Shown here one piece after another: positions 34,513 to 39,902 of a stretch of 64,000 nt of DNA. The notes under the pieces were generated by a model, which had not been told where the DNA came from, made no database searches, and worked only from the letters and a program-made list of their open reading frames with translations. Within the stretch, counting starts at the first letter, position 1; every line of letters begins with the position of its first letter. The translations under genes and the position numbers were made by a program. Origin of the DNA: an uncultured Clostridia bacterium (GTDB lineage Bacteria > Bacillota > Clostridia > TANB77 > CAG-508); contig CAKPKE010000002.1 in assembly GCA_934167095.1 (NCBI GenBank), forward strand, positions 3,990 through 67,989, in the 5' to 3' direction.

Positions 34513-36066
34513 ATGAATATAAAGAATAGTAAAGGTATCACATTAGTAGCATTAGTTGTAACTATAGTGGTACTTTTAATTTTAGCAGGTGTATCAATAA
34601 ATCTAGTGTTAGGAGAAAATGGTTTGATAACACAAGCTCAAGAAGCAAAAAGAAAAACATTGTTAGCAGAAGAAAAGGATAATAAAGATTTTTATAATAT
34701 AGATGAATTTGTTTATGATAACACTTCAAATATAAATGTTGAAAAGGTAACTGATACTAATCCAGGGGTGTTGGAGAAAGAAAATGATAACATATATGAA
34801 ATAAATAGCATAGAAGACTTAGTCGCATTCGCGTATGATGTAAGAAATGGAAATTCTTATGCTGGAAAAACTGTAAAATTAGGATTAGATTTAGACTTTA
34901 AATCGACAAACTCATATGTTGATGCTAATAGAAGTGATTATAAAGAATATGGTTATGACGGAAATTTGAAAAAATTATTAACATCTGGTGAAGGATTTTT
35001 ACCAATAGGAACATTTAATGAAGATGAAGCTGATACTAAAAGTTTTGCTGGAATATTTGATGGAAATAATCATACAATTTCTAATTGCTACATGTATAAG
35101 AATACAGAAGAAAGACATAGAATTTCATTCTTTGGGCAAAAATTATATGGAGAAGTAAAAAATTTAGGATTAGTTAATATAAATTTTGAATTGATTAATA
35201 AGGATGTTTCTTGTTCAGTTTCAGGAATTTCTACAAAACCAGTGAATGGAGCCAAAATAAGTAACTGTTATGTTAGTGGAAATATAAAAGAAATAAGTAA
35301 TGGAACAGGAAATGCAAGTTGTTCAGGGATAGCAACATATAATCAAGGAACTATTGAAAATTGTTATAATTTGGCTAATATAGAAGTTTATATAAATGAT
35401 GATACCTTGACTGCACAAGGATTAATGGGAGGAATAACTGTAAATCAAGAAGGAAACAAGGTAATAAACTGCTTTAATTATGGCAACTTATATGCTAATG
35501 GAAAAGGAGATAGATTTGAAATTGGAGGAATTTCAAGAAATTTAGTTCAAGTAAATTCAAGTATAGAAAATTCATATAATAGAGGCAATATTTCTGCTGA
35601 AATTTCTAACAGTAACATTATAAGTATAGGAGGAATTTTAGCTTATACCTATTTGAATAATCTACAATTAAATAACTTATATAGTAATGGAAAAATGAAT
35701 ATAAAAGGTAATACTAATAGATTATATGTAGGAGGAATTGTTGGATATGATACTAATGGGAAAGTATCTTTAAAAAATTCTTATAGTATAAGTGAAATTA
35801 TAGATGAAACAACAAGTGATAATAAAAATATAGGAAATATATATGGAAGAATAAATGCATCAAATACTACAATAGCAAACTGTTACCATTTAGATCAAAA
35901 TAATTATTATGGTATTGGATCTGAACAAAGTGATACCAATATAATTAAAATTCAACCAAGTCAAAAACAAGAGTTACTAACAAAATTAAATGAAGCAGAA
36001 AATGGAATTTGGAAGAAAGATGAAAAAAATGTTAATAAAGGCTATCCAATCCTTATTTGGCAGTAA
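34513..36066 (+). CDS. prepilin-like N-terminal module + GLUG-repeat protein
   Basis: KGITLVALVVTIVVLLILAGVSINLVLGENGLITQAQEAKRKT, then 7 or more GLUG-like repeats (GGI..., N(C/S)Y..G(N/K)I). Confidence 0.65.
   Translation: MNIKNSKGITLVALVVTIVVLLILAGVSINLVLGENGLITQAQEAKRKTLLAEEKDNKDFYNIDEFVYDNTSNINVEKVTDTNPGVLEKENDNIYEINSIEDLVAFAYDVRNGNSYAGKTVKLGLDLDFKSTNSYVDANRSDYKEYGYDGNLKKLLTSGEGFLPIGTFNEDEADTKSFAGIFDGNNHTISNCYMYKNTEERHRISFFGQKLYGEVKNLGLVNINFELINKDVSCSVSGISTKPVNGAKISNCYVSGNIKEISNGTGNASCSGIATYNQGTIENCYNLANIEVYINDDTLTAQGLMGGITVNQEGNKVINCFNYGNLYANGKGDRFEIGGISRNLVQVNSSIENSYNRGNISAEISNSNIISIGGILAYTYLNNLQLNNLYSNGKMNIKGNTNRLYVGGIVGYDTNGKVSLKNSYSISEIIDETTSDNKNIGNIYGRINASNTTIANCYHLDQNNYYGIGSEQSDTNIIKIQPSQKQELLTKLNEAENGIWKKDEKNVNKGYPILIWQ
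34531..34659 (+). repeat. conserved 129-bp 5' module, copy A
   Basis: Near-identical DNA block shared with 36131, 37366 and 38682. Confidence 0.85.
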
Positions 36067-36121
36067 GATGAATATATAAAATAATTTTTATGTAAAAAAT
36101 GAAAATAAAGGAGAAATAAAA

Positions 36122-37321
36122 ATGAAAAACAAAGGTATAACCCTAGTTGCATTAGTTGTAACAATAGTAGTTCTCTTAATATTAGCAGGAGTATCAATAA
36201 GTTTAGTATTGGGACAAAATGGATTAATAAGTAATGCTAAAGAAGCAAAAGAGAAAACTCAGCTAGCTGAAAAAGATGAACTAAAGCACTTAGATGAAGT
36301 AAATGAATATATTGATTCACAAGAAGAAGAATATATAAAAGATGATGATTTGCCGGAGAATCAGGACTTAAAATCATTTATAACAGAGTGGACAGTAGAA
36401 GCAGGAGATACAATTGTTTTGCCTATATATGAAATGCAGGATGTAGATGATGAAAGAGGAGAGATAGAAACTTATTTTAATTATGATTTTACAGTTGATT
36501 ATGGCGATGGAACTGTGCTAACAGTAAAAAGCTTTGATGATGAAAATAGAAAGCACACTTATGCAAATGCTGGAACATATACTGTAAAAATAAATGGAAA
36601 ATGTGAATCTATTAGTTTTGAAAATGCACTAGATTCAGCAGATTGTAAGTTAAAAATAACAAAATTAGTGCAGTGGGGTGTAATAGGAGCAAAACATTAT
36701 GATTTTTCAGAGTGTAAAAATTTAAAAGGAACTATTCCATTACCGGCTAAAAATAGTTTTAAATATGTAGAAAGTTTTAGATTGTTATTTTATTATTGTA
36801 CAGGACTTACAGGTGAAATTCCAAAAGATTTATTTAAATATGCACCAAATGTACTAACAATGGCTAATGTATTTAATTTTACGACAGGTTTAACTGGAAC
36901 AATACCAGAAAAATTATTTGCAAATTGTACAAAAGTAACAAATTTCAGATTTATATTTGCAAGTTCCAATGTAAGTGGTGAGATACCAGAAAAACTTTTT
37001 ATAAGCAATCCAGAAGTTGTGAATTTTGATGGAGTTTTTAGACAGGCATATGCCATGACTGGACTGGTACCAAAGAACTTGTTTAAATATAATAATAAAA
37101 TACAAACATTAAGAGGATTATTTACAGAAACTAATTTGAGTACTGAAGAAATTTATTTTTCATCAAATGATATATCTCAAATTGGGGATATACATTTGAA
37201 AAATGGTACTGATGGAAGTGTAAAAGTATATGTCCCAAAAGATTCGATAACTGAACAAACGTTTAAAAACAGATGGGGAGCCAATAATGATAAATTAATA
37301 ATTGAAAATTACACAGTATAA
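36122..37321 (+). CDS. prepilin-like N-terminal module + DUF285/BspA-type leucine-rich-repeat protein
   Basis: Same N-module, then repeated ~25-aa units (F..CT.LTG.IP..LF....V......F). Confidence 0.65.
   Translation: MKNKGITLVALVVTIVVLLILAGVSISLVLGQNGLISNAKEAKEKTQLAEKDELKHLDEVNEYIDSQEEEYIKDDDLPENQDLKSFITEWTVEAGDTIVLPIYEMQDVDDERGEIETYFNYDFTVDYGDGTVLTVKSFDDENRKHTYANAGTYTVKINGKCESISFENALDSADCKLKITKLVQWGVIGAKHYDFSECKNLKGTIPLPAKNSFKYVESFRLLFYYCTGLTGEIPKDLFKYAPNVLTMANVFNFTTGLTGTIPEKLFANCTKVTNFRFIFASSNVSGEIPEKLFISNPEVVNFDGVFRQAYAMTGLVPKNLFKYNNKIQTLRGLFTETNLSTEEIYFSSNDISQIGDIHLKNGTDGSVKVYVPKDSITEQTFKNRWGANNDKLIIENYTV
36131..36259 (+). repeat. conserved 129-bp 5' module, copy B
   Basis: See 34531. 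Confidence 0.85.
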
Positions 37322-38577: not shown

Positions 38578-38618
38578 AAATATAGAATGAAAAATGGGCA
38601 AAAAGCACAGGAGGAAAA

Positions 38619-39902
38619 ATGAAAAGAATAAAAGTTGAAAGCCTTGGAAATGTGTACAACAATACCAATAAATTAAAAAATAAAGGAATAACCTTAGTAG
38701 CTTTAGTAGTAACAATAGTAGTTCTCTTAATATTAGCAGGTGTATCAATAAGTTTAGTATTGGGACAAAATGGATTAATTACTCAAGCTCAAGAAGCAAA
38801 AAGAAAAACTGCTGAAGCTGAAAAAAATGAAACAACTTCAATAGATAGCACTTCAGATTGGGTATCAGAAATAGTAAATAATACAAGCTTACCACAGAAT
38901 AATATAACAAAGCCATATATGCCAAGCAGTGAATTTAGAAAAGTAGAAGGAACAAACCTAGCAAATGGACTAGTAATAGAAGATGCAAGTGGTAATCAAT
39001 ATGTTTGGGTAGAAGTACCAATGACAGCAGAAGTATATCCAACAGCAGGGTTAGAGATAATAGAATTTAATGCAGATATTTATACAAAAATAGAAAACGA
39101 TTTACACAATTATGCTGACTTATATACAACAAGTTGGAAAGATGAATATTGTGAATTAAATTCAGATGGTTGGTTCAAAAATATAGAGGAATATAATGAA
39201 CGAAAATATAAAATATTAAAAAGTATATATGAAAATGGAGGCTTTTGGATAGGAAGATATGAAGCTGGAACAGAAATAAATAGAATTGAAGGAGCGGAGA
39301 TAAATGTAAAGCCTCAATCAAAAGAAAATTTATATCCATATACATTTGTCACAAGAAGTCAATCAAAGAAAATAGCAGAAATGATTGAATATGAGAATGG
39401 GGAGAAGAAATATAGCGGAAGTCTAATGTTGGGAATTCAATGGGATTTGATGTTAAAATATATTGAAACTAAACAAAATGAAACAGAAGAGATAATAAAA
39501 GAATTAACTTCAGACAGTACAAAAATAGGAAATTACTATAATTCTACTTATAAGTTAAATAGGGGAAAATATGCAAAACTAAATAATACAGCAAAGTGGT
39601 ACAACTATACAGATGAATTGGATGGAATAGTAGAAAATTCAATAAAATCAACACAAGATACTTTTGAAAATGCTATTTTATTAACAACAGGTGCATCTGA
39701 TCAAAATAAGTTAATGAATATTTTTGATATAGCAGGTAATGTAAGAGAATGGACTCTAGAATATACATTAGATAATGAATATCCTTGTGTTTATAGAGGA
39801 GCTGATTGTGGAGATTTGGGGTACACATATAGTGTACGCTATAGATTTAAAGCTCCTGATTACAGTGCTTCTAATGTAGGATTTCGTATTATTCTTTATT
39901 AA
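38619..39902 (+). CDS. prepilin-like N-terminal module + FGE-sulfatase domain protein (tandem paralogue of 37348)
   Basis: Longer basic leader, same N-module, then GGFWIGRYEAG, IQWDLML, AGNVREWT and VGFRIILY. Confidence 0.65.
   Translation: MKRIKVESLGNVYNNTNKLKNKGITLVALVVTIVVLLILAGVSISLVLGQNGLITQAQEAKRKTAEAEKNETTSIDSTSDWVSEIVNNTSLPQNNITKPYMPSSEFRKVEGTNLANGLVIEDASGNQYVWVEVPMTAEVYPTAGLEIIEFNADIYTKIENDLHNYADLYTTSWKDEYCELNSDGWFKNIEEYNERKYKILKSIYENGGFWIGRYEAGTEINRIEGAEINVKPQSKENLYPYTFVTRSQSKKIAEMIEYENGEKKYSGSLMLGIQWDLMLKYIETKQNETEEIIKELTSDSTKIGNYYNSTYKLNRGKYAKLNNTAKWYNYTDELDGIVENSIKSTQDTFENAILLTTGASDQNKLMNIFDIAGNVREWTLEYTLDNEYPCVYRGADCGDLGYTYSVRYRFKAPDYSASNVGFRIILY
38682..38810 (+). repeat. conserved 129-bp 5' module, copy D
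   Basis: See 34531. Confidence 0.85.

Follow-up and report, generated by a model that had tools for sequence, protein, structure and literature searches.

Modular type IV pilins, in which a pilin module is linked to a domain foreign to type IV pili (T4P), were defined in a survey that counted more than 1,200 such proteins in 264 architectures, and their display at the tip of the pilus has been proposed (Raynaud et al., 2021; PMC8179133). Dataset S1 of that survey (PMC8179133) holds fusions of IPR012902 to IPR026906 (18 proteins, plus 6 with two copies), to IPR005046 (9 proteins, plus multi-copy forms), to IPR005532 (8 proteins) and to IPR011493 (6 proteins). Here we describe four tandem genes in a 64,000-nucleotide segment of the genome of an uncultured Clostridia bacterium (assembly GCA_934167095.1, contig CAKPKE010000002.1, positions 3,990 to 67,989; hereafter the window) that place one nearly invariant N-terminal module on several kinds of cargo domain, and which we consider moderately likely to encode modular pilins of a divergent lineage. 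The four partner entries are presumably the BspA-type leucine-rich repeat (LRR; IPR026906), DUF285 (IPR005046), the FGE-sulfatase domain (IPR005532) and GLUG (IPR011493). Since the same architectures are present in that dataset, the view taken in a first-pass annotation of this DNA, that the combination of module and cargo fits no described system, does not hold. The design itself is already described, and what is new is a version of it that lacks Glu5 and a globular head, scores below domain-database thresholds and is associated with an atypical peptidase.

Other studies supply further points of reference. Glu5 of the mature pilin is frequent, not universal, and forms an inter-subunit salt bridge, the tip complex is capped by a subunit without this residue, and the two catalytic aspartates of prepilin peptidase have been called universally conserved (Pelicic, 2023; PMC10191384). 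Outside the bacteria, the Sulfolobus bindosome has been described as a set of non-pilin sugar-binding proteins that carry a class III signal peptide and need a T4P-like assembly system (PMC3047682).

In each of the four window genes a basic leader of 4-22 residues, rich in Lys and Asn and ending in Gly, is followed by the sequence ITLVALVVTIVVLLILAGVSI(N/S)LVLG(E/Q)NGLI..A(K/Q)EAK.KT. A profile hidden Markov model (HMM) of this module matches exactly five open reading frames (ORFs) in the window, the four cargo genes and a short gene at 58725 whose product scores 97.8 bits, so that both ORF reading and the profile bear out the five module carriers reported in the first-pass annotation. Among the window paralogues, module DNA is 71-73% identical over 196 nt, and from G-1 to +26 the four cargo genes differ at synonymous sites (pS, 0.26-0.56) far more than at non-synonymous ones (pN, 0-0.035). 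Because synonymous divergence is high, gene conversion is rejected as the source of the identity, and the near-invariant module is held by purifying selection. The constraint extends well beyond this locus. When 235 distinct sequences were selected for G-1, T+2, L+6 and T+9 and the other positions were then counted, Ile+1 was found in 234, Ala+5 in all 235, Gly+18 in 229, Asn+28 in 222 and Gly+29 in 231, and the amphipathic stretch to about +44 was likewise conserved; G-1 is nearly invariant also in alignments on which it was not imposed. The unusual Ile at +1 and Ala at +5, remarked on earlier for the window genes, are therefore real and family-wide. The hydrophobic segment after the Gly spans 21-25 residues, and mature lengths are bimodal, with module-only proteins of ~44-105 residues and cargo-bearing proteins of 166-782 residues.

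The family is very large and without annotation. A profile search of 1.84 billion cluster representatives (50% identity) returned 30,372 matches at E up to 1e-3, 18,143 of them at 1e-10 or below, a module search returned 1,286 proteins, the best of which are mostly unannotated and 60-110 aa long, and gene 3 (the genes are numbered in Table 1) has at least 7,960 homologues, of which the best 120 are full length and of the same architecture. The matches examined bear no informative name, and a literature search covering modular pilins, prepilin peptidase, Clostridia, metagenomes and diversity-generating retroelements (DGRs) found no paper that prints the module sequence or describes this family. 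A phage origin of the module is rejected, as it occurs in only 4 of 2.9 million viral contigs. Seventy-eight loci returned by a module scan of one genome per species were analysed locally (L numbers below), the best 80 confirmed stretches coming from ~35 metagenome-assembled genomes (MAGs) of uncultured Clostridia, and all top loci belong to such MAGs from human, rabbit, chicken and other samples. Genomes that yielded more than one locus had several module genes, some of them as tandem arrays; the MAG CANQGW has at least 9 high-scoring module genes on 7 loci, and the window has 5.

The module is a divergent class III signal peptide joined to a pilin alpha-1 helix, without a globular head. The Pfam N_methyl model (PF07963) is the top or second match on all four cargo proteins, at 15.5-16.7 bits (15.8 for gene 2) relative to a cut-off of 21.2, and is passed by a module-only relative of 70 aa, P0112, at 21.6 bits; at E <1e-3 it is matched by only 7 of 79 family members, and NCBIfam offers just weak matches to the GspG pseudopilin. 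When a profile built from 61 module-only proteins was searched against all PDB sequences, type IV pilins were the sole credible matches (MshA at E 0.0076, PilA and Geobacter geopilin domain 1), with the MshA alignment spanning lkkekGITLvALVVTIvVLliLA, and the other matches were very weak and fell on chains named "Fiber" or "Fiber protein". AlphaFold2 models the protein at 58725 as two helices, 6-32 and 37-70, broken at a conserved G-x-N/G-G, and nothing else (predicted local distance difference test score, pLDDT, 80); Foldseek found no meaningful match for this helix model. For gene 3 the prediction is again two helices, 11-33 and 38-70, with the break at G-x-N-G, followed directly by one globular FGE-like domain. 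The module therefore corresponds to a class III signal peptide plus a headless pilin alpha-1. The prepilin-like character proposed earlier is thus borne out by the N_methyl and PDB matches, together with the T4P context in related genomes set out below, and the N-terminus is predicted to be a long, broken helix.

In at least seven related gut Clostridia assemblies, a 70-77-aa module-only gene is part of a conserved T4P operon. Its genes are, in order, a pilM-pilN fusion, a pilO-like gene, a gene for a 128-aa membrane protein, the module-only gene in the pilin slot, a pilD-like gene (A24_N_bact, 102 bits), a pilin gene of ~140-160 aa in which Gly is followed by [IVA]TG[IVL]D, a second pilin gene of ~152-155 aa in which Gly is followed by [VI]TL.., pilB (T2SSE, E 8e-98), pilT and pilC (T2SSF). 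The operon is complete or nearly so at L008-L010, L065, L067, L072, L077 and L086, and L054 holds a fragment in which pilMN, pilO and the 128-aa gene are followed by a 173-aa module gene at the contig end. P0112 and five other module-only genes of 70-77 aa occupy this conserved operon, P0112 lying directly upstream of the pilD-like gene. In contig CAKOSX010000001.1, four genes with module and cargo form a tandem array whose start lies 2.5 kb downstream of pilC (L012/L072). Most module genes, like those of the window, are found at scattered sites away from T4P operons. The operon's two further pilin families, which are otherwise unrelated, also retain Gly-1 and, after it, [IVA]-T. This retention across three pilin families, the best indirect argument for cleavage, speaks for a maintained cleavage site. 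Residue +5 of the 152-aa operon pilin is E, T, Q, S, A or I, and the 150-aa pilin alone keeps an acidic residue (Asp) there.

The cargo is best defined for gene 3, whose fold is well modelled, and the repeat types of genes 1 and 2 come from weaker or indirect Pfam evidence. In a Pfam census of 79 module-bearing proteins, LRR_5 was the most frequent cargo domain (12 proteins), and FGE-sulfatase was found 7 times, Glug 5, LRR_8 4, DUF285 3 and fn3 2. The GLUG repeats ascribed to gene 1 gave no direct Pfam match at E up to 1; its closest homologues (L036, L013 and L015, at 38-40% identity) pass the Pfam Glug cut-off, and an NCY..GN motif recurs in its cargo. For gene 2, named earlier as a carrier of DUF285/BspA-type LRRs, Pfam gave a weak LRR_5 match (E 0.026) and in addition a PKD_4 match (E 5.5e-5). 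Pfam matches of the window proteins to the FGE-sulfatase domain are below threshold (15.8-17.1 bits relative to a cut-off of 23.3). The AlphaFold2 model of gene 3 (pLDDT 86, predicted template modelling score 0.81) was matched best by Foldseek to the DGR variable proteins TaqVP (5vf4, E 2.6e-5) and TvpA (2y3c), and next to OvoA, FGE, EgtB, CarF, Mtd and PorK, with FGE, pFGE, EgtB and OvoA at E 3.5e-4 to 1e-2. On this model the gene 3 cargo is of the FGE-like subclass of the C-type lectin fold, so the FGE fold assigned at first to genes 3 and 4 is upheld by structure prediction though their Pfam scores are sub-threshold. Genes 3 and 4 are 60% identical, the differences falling mostly in the C-terminal 35 residues of gene 4. 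The first-pass annotation had also pointed to a paralogue with an ordinary anchor at 887-2140, and this protein does have the FGE-like domain in common with genes 3 and 4 (23% identity, E 9e-17), on an anchor unrelated to the module.

An enzymatic role for this cargo, as had been suggested, is unlikely. The catalytic, copper-binding cysteines of human FGE (Cys336 and Cys341) lie just after its GGS(Y/W) motif. In this region genes 3 and 4 read ...CADRGGSYYTTGKNNPANYHY... and ...CVYRGADCGDLGYTYSVRY..., respectively, and inspection by eye found a Cys-x4-Cys pair after RGG(S)Y in neither. With no Cys after this motif, and with ligand-binding DGR variable proteins as the best structural matches, we read the FGE-like cargo as ligand-binding rather than enzymatic, and the cargo in general looks like binding domains, not enzymes.

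Three relatives that carry the module and a C-type lectin fold are, judging from their repeats, true DGR targets. The template base is an adenine in 21 of the 24 mismatches between variable and template repeat at L021 (2520-6182), where an RVT_1 reverse transcriptase is adjacent (E 5e-20), in 23 of 25 at L022 (9920-13788) and in 20 of 20 at L076 (9953-12549); no reverse transcriptase was identified at the latter two loci. The window itself differs from these relatives, even though the cargo of genes 3 and 4 is structurally matched to DGR variable proteins (TaqVP 5vf4, TvpA 2y3c and Mtd 1yu1). Its ORFs include no reverse transcriptase, 30000-44000 contains no template-like repeat, and the 3' ends of genes 3, 4 and 887 align neither to each other nor to the template repeats of the relatives. 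Among strains, gene 4 varies mainly at 6 positions in residues 403-418, and the C-terminus of the 887-2140 protein is invariant in 15 strain variants. A DGR within the window is rejected on these grounds (no reverse transcriptase, no template repeat and little C-terminal strain variation). In the literature found, the link between DGRs and pili concerns mainly the type V pili of Bacteroides.

Our preferred explanation, to which we give moderate credence, is that the products of the four genes are modular pilins belonging to a divergent, Glu5-independent T4P lineage of uncultured gut Clostridia. Each protein would be inserted N-in by way of its class III signal peptide, the short basic leader would be removed after the invariant Gly by the PilD-like peptidase of the lineage, presumably with N-methylation of the new N-terminus, and the conserved alpha-1 of ~60 residues, with its G-x-N-G kink, would dock on a PilC/PilMNO platform from which PilB would extrude it. 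Helix-only subunits of 60-70 residues, such as the one at 58725, could form or seed the fibre, and cargo paralogues might be co-assembled at low frequency, at the tip or sparsely along the shaft, so that a GLUG beta-helix, a PKD domain with LRRs and a C-type lectin fold would be presented beyond the cell wall as interchangeable adhesins. This account supposes that the genome of the window organism has a T4P operon like that of its relatives. Assembly finds its best argument in how strongly the whole helix, extracytoplasmic part included, is constrained, far beyond the needs of a simple anchor; the occurrence of helix-alone proteins in the pilin slot of the operon likewise points to assembly.

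Several observations weigh against this explanation. As the first-pass annotation had noted, no T4P machinery gene occurs in the 64-kb window, judged from its ORFs of at least 100 aa read by eye and Pfam searches of 14 of them. The T4P operon of this genome was not located, the module scan having given only relatives at no more than 84% identity, and look-ups at both ends of the window showed just housekeeping genes or short contigs. The four cargo proteins fall below the Pfam N_methyl cut-off, the NCBIfam matches at E up to 1 include no prepilin N-terminal domain model, no member has Glu5, and the predicted module lacks a globular alpha-beta pilin head and so is not a full pilin module of the kind found in Streptococcus sanguinis PilB. 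The peptidase is also atypical. The PilD-like protein (L008:10298-11104, with orthologues in L065, L067, L072, L077 and L086) has a strong A24_N_bact (methylase/zinc-finger) domain. Peptidase_A24 gave no match in the L008 protein at E up to 0.1, and the domains precomputed for 120 homologues do not include it. Of 117 homologues, 116 have the first catalytic Asp, and GxGD is replaced by Y-T-[LIF]-[EDNQS], the position that hhalign aligns with the second catalytic Asp being E in 56, D in 33, N in 14, Q in 11 and S in 3 of the 117; an invariant Glu occurs 14-15 residues downstream (MAFFT: loop between two transmembrane segments). The lack of GxGD and of a Peptidase_A24 match makes cleavage uncertain.

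The atypical PilD-like partner would suit the main rival explanation, a pilin-derived anchor that stays uncleaved and serves as an N-in/C-out stalk for binding domains, unprocessed, unpolymerised and independent of T4P. Given the published role of Glu5 (PMC10191384), its loss would be expected if such a protein had no free N-terminal amine to neutralise, and the same explanation accommodates both the position of most module genes away from T4P operons, the window included, and the paralogous cargo domain on an ordinary anchor at 887-2140. Yet an anchor needs just hydrophobicity, and at least 40 positions, including NG(I/L)I..A.EAK.KT, are nearly invariant in this family (235 sequences, more than 18,000 representatives). 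Retention of Gly-1 in three operon pilin families also speaks against an unprocessed stalk, and module-alone proteins of 60-70 residues in the pilin slot make no sense as cargo anchors; we regard this rival as rather unlikely.

Less probable still is export by a pseudopilus-like or bindosome-like device, in which a short piston or wall-spanning structure would carry the cargo across the thick wall and no long adhesive pilus would be formed. The number of module genes per genome (at least 9 on 7 loci in CANQGW, 5 in the window) and the predicted helix-only subunits agree with this explanation, and the archaeal class III signals on binding proteins offer a precedent by analogy (PMC3047682). Among the operon genes of the relatives, however, are those for a PilT-type retraction ATPase and for PilM/N/O, a set more typical of type IVa pili than of Com or type II secretion-like systems. 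Finally, one could suppose that recent tandem duplication or gene conversion left the shared module as a functionless by-product, the genes being tandem and genes 3 and 4 clear duplicates. We give this almost no credence, as pS reaches 0.26-0.56 inside a module whose amino acids are almost identical and the module recurs in many assemblies, attached to cargo of unrelated kinds, and is matched by 18,143 cluster representatives at E up to 1e-10; synonymous divergence and the breadth of the family together exclude gene conversion or chance as the cause.

Set beside described systems, the modular pilins proposed here show a pilin module linked to non-T4P domains, as in the published definition, with the pilin module reduced to alpha-1. 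In the S. sanguinis modular pilins the module of PilB comprises both alpha-1 and a beta-sheet head, which makes it a small but complete pilin, and its signal peptide is canonical, whereas here only the helix is present, and compared with PilB and PilC, Glu5 is replaced by Ala in every member. In contrast to the catalogued modular pilins, several copies are found per genome, some in tandem arrays, and since the module falls below the Pfam cut-off, the InterPro-based census of modular pilins probably missed this family. Geobacter PilA-N (geopilin domain 1, 7tgg) is alike in having a mature subunit of ~60 residues that is essentially alpha-1, and it is one of just three pilins matched by the module profile, the similarity being weak (E 0.87). 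PilA-N retains Phe1 and Glu5 and pairs with PilA-C, and no PilA-C-like partner is evident here. Tip minor pilins of the GspK/PilK type also lack Glu5, and the tip is likewise the site proposed for modular pilins; they are one specialised subunit per system, in which the major pilin keeps Glu5, whereas in this family even the module-only protein that occupies the pilin slot is without it. The Sulfolobus bindosome belongs to another domain of life and uses other machinery (Bas), and the comparison is an analogy only.

A broader and more tentative proposal, which we think possible and somewhat doubtful as a whole, is that a clade of uncultured gut Clostridia has a type IV filament that departs from the known ones in four linked ways: there would be no Glu5; the subunit would be a headless helix of ~63 residues; the peptidase would lack GxGD and perhaps use an invariant membrane-embedded Glu; and the helix would serve as a universal adaptor on several swappable cargo proteins in each genome, some of which DGRs would hypermutate, so that the whole would act as a programmable fibre for adhesin display. 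If cleavage and assembly do occur, a type IV filament would need neither Glu5 nor a pilin head nor a GxGD motif in its peptidase, three features that current reviews treat as conserved or universal. The family is probably a major class of gut Clostridia surface proteins that is now labelled "hypothetical", and pilin-borne binding modules provide a testable idea of how these uncultured commensals may attach to hosts, food particles or other microbes. The DGR-targeted members, for their part, would tie mutagenic retrohoming to pilus-displayed adhesins in Firmicutes.

The window is a chromosomal segment with a G+C content of ~28%, and its host is an uncultured, probably spore-forming member of the gut Clostridia. 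Among the products of the window is a response regulator that ends in a Spo0A-type domain (Spo0A_C), and identical genes are found on human-gut (Hadza) metagenome contigs, where they adjoin a gene for the small acid-soluble spore protein SspH. Housekeeping proteins of the window are ~65-76% identical to those of the module-bearing Clostridia MAGs, and the organism looks like a fairly close relative of these, its own species not being among the returned loci. The four cargo genes (Table 1) are co-directional and lie 26-55 nt apart, and a terminator scan found no terminators between them.

Table 1. Positions in the window of the module-bearing genes, the related cargo gene and the upstream boundary of the four-gene unit.
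Feature	Position	Strand	Description
FGE-like cargo paralogue	887-2140	+	Unrelated ordinary N-terminal hydrophobic anchor; cargo in common, not module
Terminator-like hairpin	34323-34352	+	After upstream 89-aa gene; 5' boundary of four-gene unit
Gene 1	34513-36066	+	517 aa; leader MNIKNSK-G; module (G-1 to +44) 34534-34668; GLUG-type repeat, beta-helix-like cargo
Gene 2	36122-37321	+	399 aa; leader MKNK-G; module 36134-36268; acidic linker; PKD-like domain; BspA/DUF285-type LRRs
Gene 3	37348-38577	+	409 aa; TTG start; module 37369-37503; predicted FGE-like / C-type lectin fold domain, ~residues 75-409
Gene 4	38619-39902	+	427 aa; module 38685-38819; tandem paralogue of gene 3
Module-only gene	58725-58940	+	71 aa; module 58743-58877; alone between fmt and mutS2; diverged module copy

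Neighbouring parts of the window contain other features. Directly upstream of the cargo genes, 31325-34352 encodes the Spo0A_C response regulator, a 490-aa polytopic protein and an 89-aa membrane protein and ends in the terminator, an order that is also kept in L002 and L003. The 490-aa protein has a C-terminal GGSGIGY motif and no Pfam match, and is possibly an orphan sensor kinase. Between the cargo genes and corA, at 39923-40456, lie three tandem repeat units of ~99 nt, each with a perfect 12/12 sigma-70 promoter (TTGACA-17-TATAAT, at 39946, 40120 and 40346) and a terminator-like hairpin ~40-70 nt past it. These units resemble three small RNA genes, units 1 and 3 folding at z-scores of -3.8 and -3.4; there was no Rfam match.

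Farther from the cargo genes, priA (54934-57196) is apparently disrupted: the Walker A motif at the end of the N-terminal ORF is garbled (GVTGSRKNRN...), ~350 nt without a long ORF come next, and the C-terminal part restarts at 56057, a pattern that reflects either a pseudogene or an assembly error. After a small gene for an S4-domain protein, the region 62000-63700 is poor in ORFs and has a G+C content of 33.7%, compared with ~28% for the window; it has no Rfam match even at E up to 0.1, and may represent a structured RNA not yet described or an element that has degraded. Lastly, 17200-23100 is a small island in which several short genes lie on either strand and the GC skew is locally reversed; at 21378-23087 it has a 569-aa ORF that by eye resembles a serine recombinase, and it is probably an integrated mobile element.

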